IMG/VR virus record: IMGVR_UViG_3300048599_000734
Location: 1-25,448 of that record
DNA from: a virus
Taxonomy: Duplodnaviria; Caudoviricetes
Length of the DNA: 25,448 nucleotides
Reading direction: 5' to 3' (one strand)
Shown: positions 631 through 18,756 of the stretch, piece by piece
Layout of the letters: each line of letters begins with the position of its first letter
How positions within the stretch are numbered: position 1 is the stretch's first letter
The notes under the pieces: model-generated
The model's database searches: none
Told to the model about the DNA's origin: nothing
The model's input: only the letters and a program-made list of their open reading frames with translations
Program-made: the position numbers and the translations under genes

Positions 631-3600
631 GAATTCACGCCTCCCGATCCCCTCGACATATCCTTGGCCGCATTCATCAGTTCATTGCTATAATCGCCGA
701 CGTCATCAATACCATACAGGTTCTTGTTCCCATAATCATTGATCGTAACGATTGAATTTCCCCCAGAAGCAGCAATTACAGGAGTATTTCCGGAAAAAAG
801 GCCAGGTGCCGAAAGTTCCGACGCTATGCGTTTATAGTCATCAACAAACTTCCGGATCTTCTTCAGGCCGTCGCTGATGAAGGTGTCCTGGTTCGCGTTG
901 AATACCTTGGTTGCATTGGTAAGCGCCTCCTTCAGCTTTGTGTCCGCGCTGGTAAGGGAGGATACCCCTTCCTGGGCAAACTTTTCAGTAGCGGCCAACA
1001 TTTGCTGCTGCTCCGTTTCAAGGTCAGCCCGCAGCTTCTGGTATTTGGCCTTGTTATCCTCAAGCTCCTGCTCAATCGCTTCCTTCCTGGAATCCTTCTC
1101 CCGGTCGCGGGCGTCCTGGGCATCCTGCCGGTCAAGCTCCCGGATTTTATCCTGGGCATCCTTCAGGATACGCTGGCCTTCCGGAGTTGCAGCGCCGGCA
1201 TATTTCCGGATAATAGCTTCAGCGTCAGCCCGTTCGCTTGCACGATCCGCAGCCTTCTCCTGATCCTCAATCGCCTGGTATTCCTTATCCAGCGCTTTCA
1301 GCTTATCGTTCAGCCGTTTTTCTTCCTGGTCTTCTTCCCAGTCATACTGCGATTTTTTCTTGTCGATATAGTCCTTGACCATTTTGTCCAGCATGGTTTT
1401 GTTGTCCTGGACTTCCTTATCGGCCATTTCCTTTTTCAACCGGTTCAGGTTCTTTGTGGCTGCAGCGACGGCTTCAATATTATCCTTCTGGTTTTTATAC
1501 ACCCTGGTCCAGGCAGCGATTTCATCCTCGGCCGACAGCTTGCCCAGTTCCTTCTGGGTGGCGATCCAGTTCACGGAGTCCTGCAGCCGTTTTGTCTGGA
1601 TGGATTTCTGGGCGGTATAGATGCGCTCCTCGATGTCCATACGCTCATCGGCGGTTTTGACATAAGCGCTCTTGATCGCCTGCAGGGTCTTGACCTCATC
1701 TTCCAGGGAGAGCTGGTTCATGGCCTTTCTATGCTCCAGGACTTTCAGGGCGGCGTCCAGCGCCTCGTTTTTATAGGTCTGCGTGCTGGCCCGAGAGGTA
1801 TTATCCAGGTCGGAATAGGTCTTTCCCGTGCCGGCCGACGAGGATTTGGTCACCTGGGTGACCCATGCCGGCAATTCATAGGTATTCGGATTCTTCAGCT
1901 TGTCGGCGGCGACAATCGCCTCCGCATATTTGTTGATATCTTCCTTGAGCTTTGCCTGCTTCTCATCCAGGCTGCTTAACTGCCCATTGAGCTTCTCCCA
2001 TTGGCCGATCTTGTCCTGCATTTCAAAGATAAAGCCCGTAGTATGATTGTATCCGGCTTTGTAGACCTCATCGATGAGCTTCTGGAATTCCTTGTCCGAG
2101 CTGTTATTTTCGCCTTTGGCAATCTTATCCGCCAATTTGTTGTACAGATCCTGATTACCCTGGAATTCCTTCTTGACCGCATCCCGCTGCTGGGTCAGCT
2201 GCGCCCGTTGGGTATCCAAATCAGACAGCTGCGCCCGGAGGCTGCTGATCTGCATTTTCCCCTGAGACGCCAGCAGTTCCACGTCCTGCTGATATGCTTT
2301 TTTCTTTTCGCTGCTCAATTGTTTTACGAGATCGATCTGGGTCGTATATTTCTGGTTCTCACTGTCAATCCCGTCGGCAGCAGCCGGATACAGGTCAGCC
2401 AGCTTTTTCTCGATGTCATGGAGCTGCGTCTTTTCTTCCGTGGTCTGGCTCGTCTTGGACTTTAGCGTTTCATATTTTACGATGAGCTGATCCGTATTAT
2501 CCAGTTCCTGACGGGTCGCCTGCAGCGTCTTCTGTGTCTGTTGCTCCGCCGCTTTTGTAGCGGCGGTATATCCGATGATTCCGCTTACCAGGGCGGTAAT
2601 CCCGGCCGCAATAGCGATATACGGATTGGCGGCCGCGCTGATATTAAAGGCCGCCTGCACGGCAGCTGCCACCTTCAGCGCCGCGCTCAAGGCGGTAACA
2701 GCGCTGATGATTCCCACGATTTCCTTGCCGTATGCGGCCATGATCTCAATGGCTTCCGTCAGGCCGTCAACCACCTGGACGAGGAACCCGCTGATTCCAT
2801 CAGCGATTTTGTCCAGCGTGCCGTTCTGGCTCCATTCGTCCCAGGTCGACATGAAATCGGACTGCTTTTCCTTCAAACTCTCGAAAACATCCTCTCCAAT
2901 TTGTCGGCCAAAGGCTGATAGATTATCCTGGATCGTGGACATCAGGCCATTAAAGGTCTTGGACTGCTCATCCATCATACCTTTATATTTGGAATCCATG
3001 ATAGCCATAACGGCATCCATGGTCTGTGCTATGGAAGAGGTTAACTGACCGCCTTTATCAAACTGGATATCTTGCTCCGTCAGCAACTTCATGGATATGC
3101 CCAACCGTCGCAGTTGCTCCATTGCCTCTCCGGTTTGTCCGGATGAAAGCCGGCCTATGGCGTCGGCCACCTGTGTCATCGGTACGTTGAATGCGCTTGC
3201 CGCATTACCGATTTGAGTAAGATATTTCCGGGTATCCAGACCGAACGTTTCAAGCAGCTTTGATGCTTCCACTACTTGCGGCATGTCAAACGGCGTCTTA
3301 GCTGCGAAATCGAATAAGTATTCCAGATGCTCTCTGGCACGATCTGCGCTGCCGAGCAACACATTAAAGGAGGTGGTGTATTGCTCAAACTGCGCGTTGC
3401 TTCCCACGGTGAAATCGAAGAACTGCTTTCCGGAATAAACCATGATAGCACTTTTGATTAATGTAACGAGAGAATTTAATTTCCCGCTTAATAAGCCTAT
3501 TTTACCACCCATGCCATCTATTGATTTTTGCGTTTTCTGAGTTTGATCGTCCAGGCCTTTGGTCTCGTTTTGCAGCTTTTTCATCGCAGTGCTTTGCTTA

Positions 3601-3926
3601 TCAATTTCACTATTCGCACGCTGCATAGCAGTTTGTATGCTATTTTCCCGTTCCTGAGCCCTCATTAGCTGTAAGTGTAATTTTTCCGTAGCTTCTGCAT
3701 CAGAACCCTTGGTTCTTATTGATTCTTGATATTTAGCGTTTAGTGAACTGACAATATTTTTTTGTGCGTCGAGTTTCTGACTAAGCAATTGCATTCTGGC
3801 ATTTAGTTGTATTGATTTGCTTTCGAAATCAGATAGGGATACTGTCGCTTTCTTAGTTTCATTGACTATACCTGAAGCATCGCCACCGATTCTAACTAAT
3901 ATTTCCCCAACAGTCAAATAACTCAC
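627..3926 (-). CDS. Tail tape measure protein
   Basis: 1099 aa, coiled-coil and Ala-rich, with tape-measure motif FAAKTPFDMPQVVEASKLL and ANPYIAIAAGITAL segment; lies between tail chaperone and Dit. True start may be TTG at 3917 (MTVGEILVRIGGD). Confidence 0.95.
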   Translation of the reverse strand: MSYLTVGEILVRIGGDASGIVNETKKATVSLSDFESKSIQLNARMQLLSQKLDAQKNIVSSLNAKYQESIRTKGSDAEATEKLHLQLMRAQERENSIQTAMQRANSEIDKQSTAMKKLQNETKGLDDQTQKTQKSIDGMGGKIGLLSGKLNSLVTLIKSAIMVYSGKQFFDFTVGSNAQFEQYTTSFNVLLGSADRAREHLEYLFDFAAKTPFDMPQVVEASKLLETFGLDTRKYLTQIGNAASAFNVPMTQVADAIGRLSSGQTGEAMEQLRRLGISMKLLTEQDIQFDKGGQLTSSIAQTMDAVMAIMDSKYKGMMDEQSKTFNGLMSTIQDNLSAFGRQIGEDVFESLKEKQSDFMSTWDEWSQNGTLDKIADGISGFLVQVVDGLTEAIEIMAAYGKEIVGIISAVTALSAALKVAAAVQAAFNISAAANPYIAIAAGITALVSGIIGYTAATKAAEQQTQKTLQATRQELDNTDQLIVKYETLKSKTSQTTEEKTQLHDIEKKLADLYPAAADGIDSENQKYTTQIDLVKQLSSEKKKAYQQDVELLASQGKMQISSLRAQLSDLDTQRAQLTQQRDAVKKEFQGNQDLYNKLADKIAKGENNSSDKEFQKLIDEVYKAGYNHTTGFIFEMQDKIGQWEKLNGQLSSLDEKQAKLKEDINKYAEAIVAADKLKNPNTYELPAWVTQVTKSSSAGTGKTYSDLDNTSRASTQTYKNEALDAALKVLEHRKAMNQLSLEDEVKTLQAIKSAYVKTADERMDIEERIYTAQKSIQTKRLQDSVNWIATQKELGKLSAEDEIAAWTRVYKNQKDNIEAVAAATKNLNRLKKEMADKEVQDNKTMLDKMVKDYIDKKKSQYDWEEDQEEKRLNDKLKALDKEYQAIEDQEKAADRASERADAEAIIRKYAGAATPEGQRILKDAQDKIRELDRQDAQDARDREKDSRKEAIEQELEDNKAKYQKLRADLETEQQQMLAATEKFAQEGVSSLTSADTKLKEALTNATKVFNANQDTFISDGLKKIRKFVDDYKRIASELSAPGLFSGNTPVIAASGGNSIVTINDYGNKNLYGIDDVGDYSNELMNAAKDMSRGSGGVNS

Positions 3927-3931
3927 CCGCC

Positions 3932-4124
3932 TTATATCTGGTCAATGAACACTTCCTCGTCATTTTCAATGCTATGGGCTTTCCGGTGTTCATCCAGCAA
4001 AATAAAAATCTGGCGTAATGTCTTACGCCAGAAGGCTTCTTCCGATTGCTTCAATTCAACGGTCCAGATATAGTACAGCTTCCGGAAGTCGATATCCCCA
4101 TCCTGGTCTACATAGTTTTTTTTT
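3932..4124 (-). CDS. Frameshift-extended C-terminal part of tail assembly chaperone (gpT-like)
   Basis: -1 frame after the A9 run reads NYVDQDGDIDFRKLYYIWTVELKQSEEAFWRKTLRQIFILLDEHRKAHSIENDEEVFIDQI*, ending just before the tape measure gene. No in-frame ATG; EEAFWRKTLRQI resembles the gpT-type motif. Confidence 0.8.
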
Positions 4125-4725
4125 CTTCATCTGCTTCGATCTCATCCCGTTCCGGCATCGTCATGAGCAACGCCTCGGTGATATATTCTTCAAAATCGCT
4201 TCCGAGCATCTCCAGTTTTGCGCTCTTCAGGATGCTGTTGAAATCGGCGACCGTTTCAATATCGAACATTTTACCGATCTCAAACAGGGATGGAGCCATT
4301 CCTTCAGGATAGGCATTCAGCATTCCTGCCCGGAGGAATGCCTTGATGCGCTTTGCGCTTCTCAGATCGACATTCATAATGCCTTTCATTGGAACGCCGA
4401 ACGCTTCCGACAGGTATTCGAATGAATTCAGGTCATAGACCAGGTTCCGGTCACAGATCGATATAGACATCAGGACAAAGAGCTTGCTTATATCGAACAG
4501 GGAAGGAGCCTGGTCTTCCGGATATTCATGGAGAAGGCCGGCCCGCAGGAAAATCTTGATGTTCCGGACATTCTCCAAGTCGATTTCATAGAGATCCTTG
4601 ATGCTGCCGAATTGTTCTTCCAGGTATTCGAGGGCGTTGGTGTCATATTTGATCAGATGGATCTTACCGTCGGAAAGCTTGATCTTTACGCCGGATTTTT
4701 TGATATATCTCAATGATTTGTCCAT
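4108..4725 (-). CDS. Tail assembly chaperone (gpG-like) with internal tandem duplication
   Basis: Between major tail and tape measure genes; YDTNALEYLEEQFG motif; ends EEKKTM over a slippery A-run; AAGGGGGA RBS. Confidence 0.85.
   Translation of the reverse strand: MDKSLRYIKKSGVKIKLSDGKIHLIKYDTNALEYLEEQFGSIKDLYEIDLENVRNIKIFLRAGLLHEYPEDQAPSLFDISKLFVLMSISICDRNLVYDLNSFEYLSEAFGVPMKGIMNVDLRSAKRIKAFLRAGMLNAYPEGMAPSLFEIGKMFDIETVADFNSILKSAKLEMLGSDFEEYITEALLMTMPERDEIEADEEKKTM
4116..4124 (-). promoter_or_regulatory. Programmed -1 ribosomal frameshift slippery site (A AAA AAA)
   Basis: Minus strand GAA GAA AAA AAA ACT ATG TAG; nine consecutive A just before the stop, with an open -1 frame. Confidence 0.8.
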
Positions 4726-7330: not shown

Positions 7331-7362
7331 TAAAAAAAGAATAGGGGGAGCTCATCCCCCCA
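7331..7362 (-). terminator. Intrinsic terminator after major capsid gene
   Basis: Minus strand GGGGGA-TGAGC-TCCCCC then TATTCTTTTTTT. Confidence 0.75.
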
Positions 7363-11920: not shown

Positions 11921-13438
11921 TTACCAGCCTCTTGGCTTTTTGACGCTGCCTTTCTTGTTTCGCTTGCCCTGGATCATTTCTCCCAATCCGGTCGTGGCAT
12001 CTGGGGCATCGTCGTGCTTGTTTTTGCCTTCGCGCTGGAAGCCACACATGGCCTTATAGTATTCCGGCCAACGCTCCGCCCAGTTCCACGGAAAATAGAT
12101 ATGCTCCATAACAAAGGTGCTGCCGGATAAGATCCTGGAGATCTTGTTAGCGGACTGATGGAACCAGCGGACAATGACCCGGCGGGTCTTGTGGATTGTC
12201 CAGATGATACGCTCCACATTCCGGGCAAAGCCCTTGCCGCCGTTGTTGCTTTCGATCATGGCAAGGTTGACCTTGTTGTCCACCAGCATCTTGGCCGTAG
12301 CCGGCTCCGTAACTTCCATTCCGGCCCCGGAAAACAGGACATCAATTACAAAACCCTCGCCCTTATACTCAACGGCGCAGATGGAACACAGTTTGTCGGA
12401 CCCTTCATCGGCCGTATCGGTATAATTGATGATCCGGTCACAAAGGAGATTCCCCCGATCGTCCCGGGGCAGATCCTTATATGTTTTGAAGTAAGCATAC
12501 AGCCGCCCCTTAGCGTCCACCGGTTCCTGCTGATAGTTTGCCAACGCAATTTCCGGGGACATTTTTCCCGGCTTGGTTTTATCCGTATAGCTCGCAAAGC
12601 TTAATATCTCCGGGCAGAGCATTTCTCCCGTCTCAAAGTTCAAGACCGCCTTCAGCTTCATTTCAAACCATTCTTCCGGTTCAATCTCCAGGAGCCGGCC
12701 GCAGATATCTTTTGTGCTCCAGCGTGTCATGATGATGATCTGGATCGCGCCTTCCTCCAGTCGGGAAAGCCAGGTGTCATTGTGCCATTCCCAATGCCCA
12801 TTCAGAAGGTTTTCATTGTGAGCCTCATCAGCCGTTTTGATCTGGTCGTCGATAATGCCGATTTTGCAGCCGATACCCGTTACGGTCCCGTTGAAGCTGG
12901 TGGCCAGGTAATTAAAAAACTGTCCCTCTAATGACCATAGGCTTGCGGCGGAATCCCCGTATTTGATATGGGTCGTGGGGAAGATATCATTAAAAATGAC
13001 CCTTTTGGGGTCAAGCTTTGTTTCGTCGATCCCGTCCCGGACGGCTTTCCCGAAGCGGGTTGAAAGCGTCTCGTTATAGGAACAGGTGATGATGGTATTC
13101 TCATTGTTCTTTCCCAGTACCCACTGGGAAAACAGCGAGGCCGTGAAGGATTTATAATGCCGGGGAGGGACATTCAGCATCATCTTTTTACAGACCGTAT
13201 ATCCTTCAAGGCCCTCCGTGGTTTCAACGATCTGCCAGGCATCGTCTTTCCCGAACTTGATGATCCGCCCTTCATAGAGCGCCTGGAAGGCCTCGCAAAT
13301 CCGTTTCTGATATGGTCGGCTCTCTTTATAGTGTTTCGGGTACCTGAGCTTGCAGTATTCCCAGAAGCTCTCACGGGCCTTCAGGTATTCGTCCTTTATG
13401 GAATTGTCGTTTTTGACCAGGCTTTCCAAAAGGCTCAT
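11921..13438 (-). CDS. terL: Terminase large subunit
   Basis: Walker A-like PPRHYKS, Walker B IGIIDD, MTRW coupling motif, YQQEP, nuclease YTDTAD...HDDAPD. Confidence 0.95.
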   Translation of the reverse strand: MSLLESLVKNDNSIKDEYLKARESFWEYCKLRYPKHYKESRPYQKRICEAFQALYEGRIIKFGKDDAWQIVETTEGLEGYTVCKKMMLNVPPRHYKSFTASLFSQWVLGKNNENTIITCSYNETLSTRFGKAVRDGIDETKLDPKRVIFNDIFPTTHIKYGDSAASLWSLEGQFFNYLATSFNGTVTGIGCKIGIIDDQIKTADEAHNENLLNGHWEWHNDTWLSRLEEGAIQIIIMTRWSTKDICGRLLEIEPEEWFEMKLKAVLNFETGEMLCPEILSFASYTDKTKPGKMSPEIALANYQQEPVDAKGRLYAYFKTYKDLPRDDRGNLLCDRIINYTDTADEGSDKLCSICAVEYKGEGFVIDVLFSGAGMEVTEPATAKMLVDNKVNLAMIESNNGGKGFARNVERIIWTIHKTRRVIVRWFHQSANKISRILSGSTFVMEHIYFPWNWAERWPEYYKAMCGFQREGKNKHDDAPDATTGLGEMIQGKRNKKGSVKKPRGW

Positions 13439-13492
13439 TTATGTGACAACTCCTTTTTGGGATTGCATATCTGCTTTTAATTTCGCCGGAAA

Positions 13493-13518
13493 CCCCGTTA
13501 TAACGCGTTATAACGGGG
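13493..13518. repeat. Perfect 26-bp palindrome
   Basis: CCCCGTTATAACGCGTTATAACGGGG equals its own reverse complement; core is two tandem CGTTATAACG palindromes. Confidence 0.9.
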
Positions 13519-13554
13519 GTGAAAAACGGAAAACGATGAATTACTCGCCTGAAT

Positions 13555-13580
13555 GAAAAAAGCCCTTTTAAAAGGCTTTA
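13555..13580 (-). terminator. Candidate intrinsic terminator in the terL leader
   Basis: Minus strand AAAGCC-TTTTAAAAG-GGCTTT-TTTC; weak stem. Confidence 0.45.
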
Positions 13581-13599
13581 AAAAAATACTCGTACGGAC

Positions 13600-13691
13600 A
13601 GGCTTCGCCATCCGGATGAATGGTCCGGTAAAGGGAGCCTGTGACGTCCTCGCTATTGTCGTGCGACGAGTCAAGCACGCAACAGCTCGGA
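13600..13691 (-). ncRNA. Candidate cis-regulatory structured element downstream of NusG paralog
   Basis: Hairpin GCUGUUG-CGUGC/UUGACUCGUC/GCACG-A-CAAUAGC, then CCGGA/CCAUUCA/UCCGG followed by AUGGCGAAGC. Folded by hand only. Confidence 0.5.
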
Positions 13692-13723
13692 TTTTATAAA
13701 GGGGTGTAAGGGGGTATATTGGA

Positions 13724-14227
13724 TCAATCGACTTTGGATATATCGACGATGCCCAGTTCCACAATCCGGGGTTCTCCCATCAGGGAGATATTAACCTTTG
13801 CCCGGAATCTTCTCGCATCGACCTTGATGATCTGCCCTTCCAATCCAACCAGGGGGCCGGATATGACATATACCATGTTGCCCTGGCGATATACTTCCGA
13901 CAAGCCGAGCGGATCGCCTTCATTCCCGAGCCGGAGGATCACCTGCATTTCCTCCAGCGGTACCGGGTCCGGTTTGCCCGTTCCCAATATCCGGATCACC
14001 GAGGGGATGGCCATGAGCCGGTAATATAGGTCAGTATCCAGATAGGCACTTATAAACACATAGCCCGGAAACAGTATCCGGGATACTTCCTTCCATTTTC
14101 CATTGATCCGTTCCCGGAGCGTCCGCTCCGGGACCAGATGAACCACTCCAGGGAGATCCCGACACAGGGCGGCTTTTGTATCATGCTCTTTTCCGGTTTT
14201 CACATGGAGGACATACCAATCATTCAT
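13724..14227 (-). CDS. NusG-family transcription antiterminator (LoaP-like paralog)
   Basis: NGN domain WYVLHVKTGKE...ILFPGYVFI...VIRILG and KOW domain VYVISGPLVGLEGQIIKVDARRFRAKVNISLMGEPRIVELG. Confidence 0.92.
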   Translation of the reverse strand: MNDWYVLHVKTGKEHDTKAALCRDLPGVVHLVPERTLRERINGKWKEVSRILFPGYVFISAYLDTDLYYRLMAIPSVIRILGTGKPDPVPLEEMQVILRLGNEGDPLGLSEVYRQGNMVYVISGPLVGLEGQIIKVDARRFRAKVNISLMGEPRIVELGIVDISKVD

Positions 14228-14795
14228 TTTCGCCCTCGATCTTCTTCATAACCTTGTCTTCGACCCGCTCCGTGAGTTCGATCATCTTGGCCAGCAACTC
14301 CGGTTCCGTCTGCAGCTCGGCCTTGAGTTCAAGCTTCACCTCGTTGATGGCCTTGCGGTAATGCTTGTTCAGTTCCGCCTTGATCTTTTCCTTATAGGCG
14401 GCGGTCCGGCTGATCGCGACCATAAGGCGACCGGCCTTATCCGGTTCCATTTCGTCAATCTCTTCCTGGGCTATCGCCATCTTTTTGATCAACAGGTCCA
14501 TCAGGATAAACAATCCGGCATCCGTATAATCCGTTTCCGGGCTGTTTTTAACGGCGTTCACCAGCACCTTGGTCTGTGCCTGGGCTTCCATCATTCTGTT
14601 GAGGACAGCGCCCTGGCGGATCGCATAGCGACCGATAGAGGATCTGCTGATTTCATATCCTTTTTTACAGATCTCTTCCGCAATTTCGTTGTAGGTAATA
14701 TTCACATTTGCGAGACGTTCGTCAACGATGCTCCGGATCTCTTCCGGCAGTTCGTCAATGCGGGATCTGTTTCTGGTACGCTGCCGTTTCTTCAT
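14220..14795 (-). CDS. Mu gp27-like (DUF3486) putative terminase small subunit
   Basis: RSRIDELPEEIR...TYNEIAE...GYEISRSSIGRY N-terminal HTH; Mu-like synteny. Confidence 0.85.
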   Translation of the reverse strand: MKKRQRTRNRSRIDELPEEIRSIVDERLANVNITYNEIAEEICKKGYEISRSSIGRYAIRQGAVLNRMMEAQAQTKVLVNAVKNSPETDYTDAGLFILMDLLIKKMAIAQEEIDEMEPDKAGRLMVAISRTAAYKEKIKAELNKHYRKAINEVKLELKAELQTEPELLAKMIELTERVEDKVMKKIEGENE

Positions 14796-15448: not shown

Positions 15449-15481
15449 AATAAAAAATCCTAGCTGTTATACTAGGATTTT
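15449..15481 (-). terminator. Inverted repeat/terminator after mor, overlapping late promoter
   Basis: AAAATCCTAG-N8-CTAGGATTTT (15454-15481) followed on the minus strand by TTATTTT. Confidence 0.6.
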
Positions 15482-15505
15482 AGCAAGGTCGCGATATGGT
15501 GTGAA
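15477..15505 (-). promoter_or_regulatory. Candidate sigma-A late promoter
   Basis: Minus strand TTCACA-17 nt-TAAAAT with extended -10 TG (TGC TAAAAT), between mor and the first late gene. Confidence 0.6.
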
Positions 15506-15556: not shown

Positions 15557-15868
15557 TTATATTGACATGGCTATCTGTCCTTCGATGGGAATGTCCTTAA
15601 TGCCTTCCACCCACCTGTATACGGTGCGTTCGGAGACGCCATATTTTTTCACCAGAGATTTGATATTATATCCACTGTATTCCTCCCTGATCCGCTGACA
15701 TACCCAGTCGGACAGGAGTTCCTGCGTCTGTGGGATATAATATCCGCTGCCGCCCATCGTTTCGCAAAGCTTGATCAGGTTGTCCAGTCCGATGATTTCG
15801 GCATACTGCCTATGCTGCGGCGGGAGATCCTCAATCCGGATTTGCGTAATCAGTTCATTAATTTTCAC
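15557..15868 (-). CDS. Mor/C-family transcription activator
   Basis: EIIGLDNLIKLCETMGGSGYYIP...IREEYSGYNIKSLVKKYGVSERTVYRWV. Confidence 0.92.
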   Translation of the reverse strand: MKINELITQIRIEDLPPQHRQYAEIIGLDNLIKLCETMGGSGYYIPQTQELLSDWVCQRIREEYSGYNIKSLVKKYGVSERTVYRWVEGIKDIPIEGQIAMSI

Positions 15869-18032: not shown

Positions 18033-18176
18033 CTAGTCTCTATCCAGCTTGCGGCATAGCTGCCGGCACAATATAAAAATCTCTCGCACATATTCGCGGC
18101 TGGATCGCCTGCCGAAGGCGATCCGGTTGGCCTTGATATCGGCTGTGACCATATCAAGCAATTTTTTAGTATCCAT
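18033..18176 (-). CDS. 47-aa basic hypothetical protein
   Basis: Not in the track. MDTKKLLDMVTADIKANRIAFGRRSSREYVREIFILCRQLCRKLDRD; AGGAGG RBS inside the end of the kinase gene. Confidence 0.6.
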   Translation of the reverse strand: MDTKKLLDMVTADIKANRIAFGRRSSREYVREIFILCRQLCRKLDRD

Positions 18177-18756
18177 GCTGGCCTCCTGTGCATTCCAGAT
18201 CCCCAAGGGACTGTATGATCTGGCGCACCAGCTCGATCACGTTCTCAGCCGAGTTGTTCGCGTCGACCACCCAATCGCACCGGAGCCGTTTGAAAGCTTC
18301 CCGGTCATATCCGACCCTTCGGCCGACATCCAGCATACTGCGACCCTGGTCCTGCATCCGGAAGATCCGTTCCTCTTTGTCAACCTTCAGGTATATGATG
18401 ACAATAGCAGCATCGGCGACATTCCTGCGGAGCATTTCAACGCCATCCGGATCGACAACGTAGATGCTCACGCCCTTGCCGTGATACTGGTCTCGCACCG
18501 CCCAGTAATGATTGTTGTCATAATGCTTGTAGGCGACGATATACCCAGGTATGCCCTGATGCTCCTGCAGGAGGGCTTCAGCCACAAACAAGTGACCCCA
18601 TTCGTTGATCTCCCGCTGCGGCCGGGTGGTGTAGGAGTGGATAACATTGTAATGCTCGCCCTCCAGGGCCTTTGCTATGGTGGATTTGCCGGAGCCGCTT
18701 TCTCCGACCAGGCAGATGATTGTGTCTTCAGCTATTTTCATAAGTCCGTTTTTCAT
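18166..18756 (-). CDS. Guanylate kinase-like P-loop NMP kinase
   Basis: ICLVGESGSGKST, SYTTRPQR, YVVDPDGV, ERIFRMQDQG. Confidence 0.85.
   Translation of the reverse strand: MKNGLMKIAEDTIICLVGESGSGKSTIAKALEGEHYNVIHSYTTRPQREINEWGHLFVAEALLQEHQGIPGYIVAYKHYDNNHYWAVRDQYHGKGVSIYVVDPDGVEMLRRNVADAAIVIIYLKVDKEERIFRMQDQGRSMLDVGRRVGYDREAFKRLRCDWVVDANNSAENVIELVRQIIQSLGDLECTGGQHGY

Follow-up and report, generated by a model that had tools for sequence, protein, structure and literature searches.

A LoaP-family NusG paralog and an adjoining RAGATH-28-type RNA element between the terminase genes of Mu-like prophages: a candidate antitermination cassette for late genes

What is a gene for a NusG paralog doing between the two terminase genes of a Mu-like prophage, and what is the role of the long gap that follows it? 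These questions are raised by a 25,448-nt stretch of viral DNA (the window) contained in a provirus record that is 68% complete. On the minus strand its genes follow the order MuA, MuB, Gam, GemA, Mor, two small genes, Gp27 (terS), the NusG paralog (loaP, see below), a 285-nt gap, terL, portal and then head and tail genes. Using marker genes for Mu-like transposable prophages taken from sections of PMC8705779, all of MuA, MuB, GemA, Mor/C, Gam and Gp27 were identified in the window with Pfam and PHROG, and by gene content the phage is a Mu-like transposable prophage. Its close relatives came from Bacillota assemblies, and 25 records of the GenBank phage collection were matched with a top identity of 37%. 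A guanylate-kinase-like gene was also identified in the early/middle region (18166–18756, minus strand; Pfam, PHROG).

The gene for the Mu Gp27-like terminase small subunit (14220–14795, minus strand) was assigned by PF11985 (E 2.3e-26) and phrog_426, and that for the large subunit (11921–13438, minus strand), the first gene beyond the element described below, by phrog_30251 (E 1e-153) and TIGR01630. Between loaP and the terL start at 13438 lies the intercistronic gap (13439–13723), which a first-pass annotation of the sequence had called the longest non-coding gap in the window, in agreement with inspection of the open reading frame list by eye. The same annotation had described a complete NGN and KOW domain protein overlapping the end of the gp27-like gene, with virion genes downstream. 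The two domains are present, the loaP start overlaps the 3′ end of the gp27-like gene by 8 nt and the roughly 13 kb beyond the gap are taken up by head and tail genes. The gap folds better than all of 200 shuffled sequences (z −4.1) and contains two unrelated elements, namely a RAGATH-28 RNA and pause half followed by a phased-repeat half.

The NusG paralog (13724–14227, minus strand; 167 aa, P0001) contains a NusG (NGN) domain at residues 3–97 and a KOW domain at residues 116–145 (Pfam). It scored 166.8 bits against the NCBIfam LoaP model NF033641 (cut-off 125) and fell below the cut-offs of the models for housekeeping NusG (TIGR00922, 83.5 bits against 135.7), UpxY (NCBIfam, 56 against 100) and RfaH (NCBIfam, 37 against 144.5). 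By these scores the protein encoded between gp27 and terL belongs to the LoaP family, which refines its earlier description as a NusG paralog. An AlphaFold model of the protein (pLDDT 91.7) gave as best fold match the whole chain of 8F5G (titled as a NusG-RNA complex; TM 0.77–0.89), which was also the top PDB match by sequence and which we take to be the LoaP-RNA structure; the remaining NusG and RfaH chains among the fold matches listed had a TM of at most 0.61. E39 and R40 of the phage protein are aligned with the ER motif of 8F5G, and E40 and R41 are given as RNA-binding residues of LoaP in excerpts of PMC12691694. A basic KOW patch is present, and 49 of 51 phage proteins retain R139, a position at which none of six NusG-like outgroup rows has Arg. 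PHROG 6386 labels the protein family 'transcription antiterminator', so the presence of the gene in phages is already on record in databases.

Directly behind loaP, positions 13602–13680 (minus strand) match the RAGATH-28 RNA (RF03052) over its full length with 42.2 bits (E 2.8e-4), just below the gathering threshold of 45.3, and in 5 of 13 related loci the Rfam match at this place lies above that threshold. The conserved RNA and pause element occupies only the first approximately 125 nt of the gap. From 154 elements, 58 non-redundant ones were retained and 54 of these aligned, with four divergent ones left out; the alignment showed the order P1 hairpin, linker, P2 hairpin and then GGCGNAGC. 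In the window P1 spans 13649–13688 (minus strand) with the loop U-GA-CUCG-UC at 13665–13673 and is predicted to be the LoaP-binding hairpin, whereas P2 (13612–13629, minus strand) is the predicted pause hairpin, its end lying at −13. The unfitted alignment contains 154 double-sided changes against 64 in shuffled versions, and none of 500 shuffles reached its covariation score, although this score is inflated by the relatedness of the loci. Double-sided changes were found at all seven P1 pairs and all five P2 pairs, with slid controls all lower. Covariation of a local hairpin between the octamer and a downstream CCC was not above that of shuffles. A related prophage (L004) also has a type II hammerhead ribozyme in its early region (2617–2683, minus strand).

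The loop of P1 is a two-pair stem capped by a YNCG loop, an architecture it shares with the core of the hairpin in the dfn leader of Bacillus velezensis. Among 55 elements the loop is UUCG in 40, CUCG in 9 (including the window), UCCG in 3, UGCG in 2 and UACG in 1, so UNCG in 46, these counts being partly circular for loci found by pattern. A CUCG loop folds like UUCG. The YNCG loop is retained across changes of the closing stem (GA/UC, GU/GC and GG/CC), and in a quick protein tree (117 of 185 proteins after dereplication, with an unresolved backbone) the loop type largely tracks the protein clade. The supplement of PMC12691694 gives the dfn hairpin core as UGUUUCGGC, and this core was found in two of the phages (L017 and L295) and beside chromosomal loaP genes; a UACG loop occurs in L296 and L298, and L094 combines a near-exact dfn hairpin with P2 and GGCGAAGC.

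The least variable part of the element is the octamer GGCGNAGC. The conserved 3′ part reads GGCGNAGC-N-Y|R and is similar to the pause sites of RfaH ops and Bacteroides opsX; in the window it is GGCGAAGC-C-T|G (13599–13609, minus strand), with the pause 3′ end predicted at 13600. The pause consensus is G-10/Y-1/G+1, and the GCG..AGC motif at such a consensus-type pause is found at the sequence level only. None of the search patterns included the Y|R step; 57 of 58 elements from phages and all 27 from chromosomes have it in one of two registers, against a background of 46%. P2 ends 13–14 nt ahead of this step in 43 of 55 elements, and the ops-like pause lies 65–87 nt past the P1 loop (about 73 nt in the window). 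For comparison, excerpts of PMC11685472 describe opsX as YGCGNAGCR with a pause hairpin, which is placed at −9 to −16 in the opsX classes, and ops as GCGGTAGC. The dfn-like YNCG hairpin, the spacing from P2 to Y|R and the likeness to opsX and ops together give the element the appearance of a LoaP hairpin combined with an ops-like pause.

As the first-pass annotation had proposed checking, the order gp27, NusG paralog, gap and terL and the motif within the gap are conserved among relatives. GGCGNAGC was found behind loaP in 51 of 58 phage-type loci, four of the misses being contig ends and three real. An RNA-only pattern search of IMG/VR found 118 stretches. Where at least 600 nt of upstream sequence was available, 70 of 75 matches had a same-strand loaP ending within 400 nt, and the five without loaP pair at only two to four of the seven P1 positions; with shorter upstream sequence, loaP stood directly before the match in 33 of 43. 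The loaP-linked matches were preceded by gp27 in 62 of 65 cases and followed by terL in 57 of 62. Where tested, the upstream gene was Gp27 in 37 of 41 loci and the first large downstream gene was a terminase in 34 of 37, with tail sheath in the other three. Conversely, 33 of 41 gp27 loci carry loaP, and in all eight without it neither GGCGNAGC nor a match to the RNA model was detected; terL overlaps gp27 in three of these eight. The loaP gene and the RNA element are thus gained or lost jointly, and the absence of the cassette from eight gp27 phages indicates that it is dispensable in these kin. It should be noted that the loci are related and redundant, and locus counts are therefore not independent events. 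An RNA model (R1), which matches its own 54 training sequences by construction, missed seven loaP-carrying loci that have the octamer and variant hairpins. In loci L013, L016 and L035 loaP and P1 are retained and the ops-like octamer is lost. L109 (1541–12092) and the similar L006 and L066 are Mu-derived, with MuA, MuB, Mor, loaP and the RNA followed directly by contractile-tail genes; gp27, terL and head genes are absent from the stretch of L109 seen, where loaP and the RNA stand before tail genes, and this type of element is possibly a transposable tail-only particle.

The pairing extends to bacterial chromosomes. Across 70 sources, model R1 matched at 30 loaP loci on chromosomes, in 17 cases at E ≤ 0.001; 14 of the matches lie upstream and 16 downstream of loaP, and many are at polysaccharide operons. 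The model gave no match in any of 17 NusG-like or distant loci. Whole-genome scans gave 27 matches, 23 with loaP within 1.5 kb; twelve were loci already in the set, and 11 of the 15 new ones have loaP. A class-wide RNA search, in which few candidates were scored, returned at least 3 of 151 genomes, and a search of 401 genomes of the order Bacillales with the B. velezensis dfn hairpin gave only five matches, with two mismatches each. The cassette of loaP and RNA is real and widespread. In gut Lachnospiraceae-type polysaccharide operons a third hairpin type and the same ops-like site lie upstream of loaP, which is the UpxY layout (L105, L110, L111, L113, L118–L120, L122–L124, L130, L131, L137 and L140).

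Upstream of the terminase genes, a Mor/C-family activator gene (15557–15868, minus strand; Pfam PF08765, E 5.5e-14; PHROG late transcriptional activator) is predicted to provide a first tier of control. It is followed by a predicted late promoter (15454–15505, minus strand; 10/12 match, TG-extended) with a −10 box overlapping a terminator hairpin (−12.6 kcal/mol, z −3.6), and inspection by eye showed this overlap behind mor in most of the 33 loci that have a mor match, whether or not they carry loaP. Owing to the overlap, the hairpin could form only in transcripts that started further upstream. Activation of the promoter by Mor is inferred from the protein family only, and the conserved overlap is as expected under the two-tier scheme of Mor/C-type initiation and NusG-type elongation control that had been proposed for this locus.

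It is considered probable that LoaP loads onto RNA polymerase at the adjoining hairpin-plus-pause element, such that the late virion genes would be transcribed without premature termination at a level below Mor-type initiation. One transcript would start at the Mor-activated promoter near 15477 and run through the two small genes, gp27 and loaP. The YNCG hairpin of P1 would be bound by LoaP once it has left the polymerase, which would then pause about 73 nt past the loop (13600), held by P2 and by a GCG-N-AGC mini-hairpin in the non-template DNA. The tethered LoaP would occupy the NusG site and counter NusA, as shown for Bacillus LoaP, and the modified polymerase would pass terminators such as those at 7362 and 4032. 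With loaP upstream on the same transcript, the virion genes would rise only after LoaP has accumulated, giving a delay. According to PMC12691694, LoaP does not antiterminate without the dfn hairpin, and the downstream pause assists.

Two candidate read-through targets were found in the window, namely a terminator-like hairpin after the major capsid gene (7342–7362, minus strand; −13.6 kcal/mol) and a perfect 10-bp one just before the tape measure gene (4009–4032, minus strand; −16 kcal/mol, z −5). The earlier statement that the virion genes contain internal terminator-like hairpins thus applies to the window, with two sense and no antisense strong terminators in the first 9 kb and the hairpin at 4009–4032 in addition, but not to the family, as strong intrinsic terminators in the first 9 kb past the terL start numbered 7 sense and 7 antisense in 15 loaP-carrying loci (133 kb). 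A terminator-laden late operon was accordingly rejected as a family trait. In 28 other phages with a related terL, 49 sense and 15 antisense terminators were counted in 252 kb. Between the element and the next gene, a terminator was called in only 11 of 32 loci on the sense strand and 5 of 32 on the antisense strand, and none in the window at that threshold; a conserved leader attenuator was thus not found. The scanner is crude and misses weak NusA-dependent and Rho sites, and LoaP may counter pauses, Rho or weak terminators that depend on NusA. Counting against antitermination are the few strong terminators, the lack of a conserved leader terminator, the eight gp27 phages without the cassette, the three loci without the octamer and the CUCG loop in the window. 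The tail assembly chaperone gene (4108–4725, minus strand) ends in an A9 run with the −1 frame open for approximately 60 codons (3932–4126, minus strand); from the sequence, a programmed frameshift is likely here, and the hairpin at 4009–4032 lies within this extension. Transcription of the tape measure gene from a restart promoter, a sigma-70-like site at 3917–3889, was considered and discarded, as the site overlaps the probable start codon.

The few strong intrinsic terminators downstream would also suit an arrangement closer to UpxY and RfaH, in which recruitment is mainly by DNA (the GCG-N-AGC non-template hairpin and the upstream duplex), the protein acts against Rho or pausing and not against hairpin terminators, and P1 is secondary. 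The octamer, the least variable part of the element, matches the opsX YGCGNAGCR, and the region of the pause hairpin is read as DNA in Bacteroides according to excerpts of PMC11685472. However, P1 covaries as RNA and its YNCG loop survives changes of the closing stem, the protein carries the basic KOW patch, with its domains arranged as in the RNA-bound structure, and three loci keep P1 without the octamer. This arrangement is therefore regarded as unlikely, although it is the best placed of the alternatives.

A purely post-transcriptional role for RAGATH-28 is judged somewhat less likely still. Here LoaP would bind its own 3′ UTR, or the P1 loop would form a pseudoknot with GGCGA, setting mRNA stability, processing or the terS:terL ratio and leaving the polymerase unmodified. 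The element does abut or overlap the loaP stop codon, the helix between the loop and GGCGA is the one selected by RNAalifold, and a helix between linker and tail shows a cognate bias (p 0.03 for phage elements; 0 of 5000 permutations for chromosomal ones). The position of the element upstream of loaP in 14 chromosomal loci, however, shows that it is not tied to a 3′ UTR. In the loop-GGCGA pairing 95% of cells are paired with one double-sided change, but the variable loop position acts as the N of YNCG and breaks the pseudoknot pair without compensation. The fixed spacing from P2 to Y|R, moreover, suits a pause.

The second half of the gap is of a different nature. Positions 13451–13555 show the strongest 10.5-bp A/T periodicity in the window and consist of phased repeats of the CGTTATAA/CGTTTAAA type, with a CGTTATAA pair at 13493–13518, resembling the arm of the Mu strong gyrase site. 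The remaining hairpins of the gap arise from these phased repeats, which are palindromic; a weak terminator-like hairpin at 13559–13579 (minus strand; −8.3 kcal/mol, z −1.4, 18 of 200 shuffles as good) is more likely part of the repeat. The gap had been portrayed as a hairpin-rich leader on which the protein would load. It does exceed all shuffles in folding, but its second half is separable, gyrase-site-like DNA, which excludes the whole gap as one leader RNA, and it is no 5′ leader but an intercistronic region approximately 1.8 kb past the predicted late promoter.

In Bacillota Mu-like phages the repeat occurs at two alternative places: in the gap, or 4–5 kb further on between head genes as for the Mu gyrase site, with or without loaP (L298, L300, L322, L327 and L067). 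In 20 of 40 phage loci and in no chromosomal ones, a repeat cluster lies no more than 450 nt past loaP. Taken alone, the periodicity peak falls into this interval in only 10 of 36 loci from phages and 5 of 58 from chromosomes. In L015 and L068 the repeat precedes the RNA element. The phased repeat is independent of LoaP. In a 10.5-kb stretch of the Mu late region the gyrase-site arm gives the top 10.5-bp periodicity peak, located 36 bp from the cut site as annotated. Like the strong gyrase site of Mu (PMC10052514), 13451–13555 has phased bending repeats, of the TTTAAAC/TTATAAC type, in an intergenic site of the late region; the Mu site is further marked by strong gyrase cleavage, a central position and its requirement for replication. 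By this analogy, 13451–13555 is probably a gyrase site for transposition; the Mu site lies between G and I, whereas that of the window stands before terL and is probably off-centre.

These observations also bear on an independent promoter in the gap, with the TTATAA repeats serving as −10 boxes or Mor sites, which would drive terL and make loaP and the RNA an incidental cassette. TATAAC is similar to a −10 box and the repeats are phased like protein sites, but no sense-strand sigma-70-type site was called in 13439–13723 and other phages, whether they carry loaP or not, have this repeat among their head genes or ahead of the RNA element, making such a promoter very improbable. The weakest proposal has the protein working chiefly in trans, on polysaccharide operons of the LoaP type in the host, and altering the lysogen surface. 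It draws on genome G001, where the prophage element is accompanied by a second one, of the dfn type, next to another loaP, and on an element without loaP in 12 kb (L286), but is scarcely credible as the gene is part of the late operon and is followed immediately by its own element, and as most phage and chromosomal clades differ from each other in loop type. L286 (G278:C114:16096–16225) is itself a complete dfn-type element and a candidate target for regulation in trans.

The reading of the locus as a LoaP system can be set against those already described. Going by its sequence features, the cassette probably works like LoaP. It shares with the LoaP-dfn/mln system of B. velezensis, as given in excerpts of PMC12691694, a family score above the cut-off, a hairpin core U-G-N-YNCG-N-C after the gene, a pause-like site downstream and a long operon. 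Bacillus velezensis LoaP, however, controls polyketide or polysaccharide genes, whereas the phage gene precedes a virion operon; unlike dfn/mln, the phage element lies between cistrons and shares its predicted transcript with loaP; and the upper stem of P1 is GA/UC in most phages against GU/GC in the dfn hairpin. The dfn leader has a terminator (PMC12691694) while the phage elements have no conserved one, and the octamer, intact in phages, has by eye only a degenerate look-alike in the published dfn leader, just before the marked pause region (PMC12691694 supplement). With Bacteroides UpxY-opsX (PMC11685472, in excerpts) and Escherichia coli RfaH-ops it has in common the GCG..AGC non-template hairpin motif and a NusG paralog beside the site, and the phage pause hairpin at −13/−14 is within the range of the opsX classes, but the phage element has an extra upstream RNA hairpin, and ops differs in its 2-nt loop and lack of a pause hairpin. 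RAGATH-28, typed as an sRNA in Rfam, is here tied to loaP and extended in the 3′ direction to the Y|R step. Lambdoid N/nut and Q and Mu Mor/C are likewise phage-encoded controls of long operons, and in the window a Mor/C-family gene precedes the late operon. Lambdoid N and Q are not known to be related to NusG. In Mu itself, gp27 and gp28 lie 7 bp apart with no loaP-like gene between them. Excerpts of PMC7593976 mention rfaH-like genes on prophages, and in the literature searched, which lay outside the RAGATH-28 supplement and the original LoaP papers, no description of phage LoaP or RAGATH-28 was found; the novelty of the phage LoaP-RAGATH-28 cassette is thus provisional.

A broader reading, towards which the balance tips only slightly, is that transposable phages of Clostridia run their late genes by a captured NusG paralog, a means distinct from N, Q and put, and that RAGATH-28 represents, in phages, a general two-part loading site for LoaP, an RNA hairpin with an ops-like DNA pause about 73 nt later, uniting LoaP and RfaH/UpxY recruitment, with the clade-specific loops as natural orthogonal protein-RNA pairs. 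If the proposed LoaP mechanism is right, a function would be given to the orphan Rfam RNA RAGATH-28 and a NusG paralog would be added to the means by which phages control their late genes. It would also offer a testable answer to an open point about LoaP, namely how a hairpin-bound protein reaches the polymerase. The conserved pause-like element provides a motif with which LoaP targets may be found across Bacillota, including the capsule operons of gut bacteria, and the compact protein-RNA pairs may be of use for the expression of long gene clusters in Gram-positive hosts.
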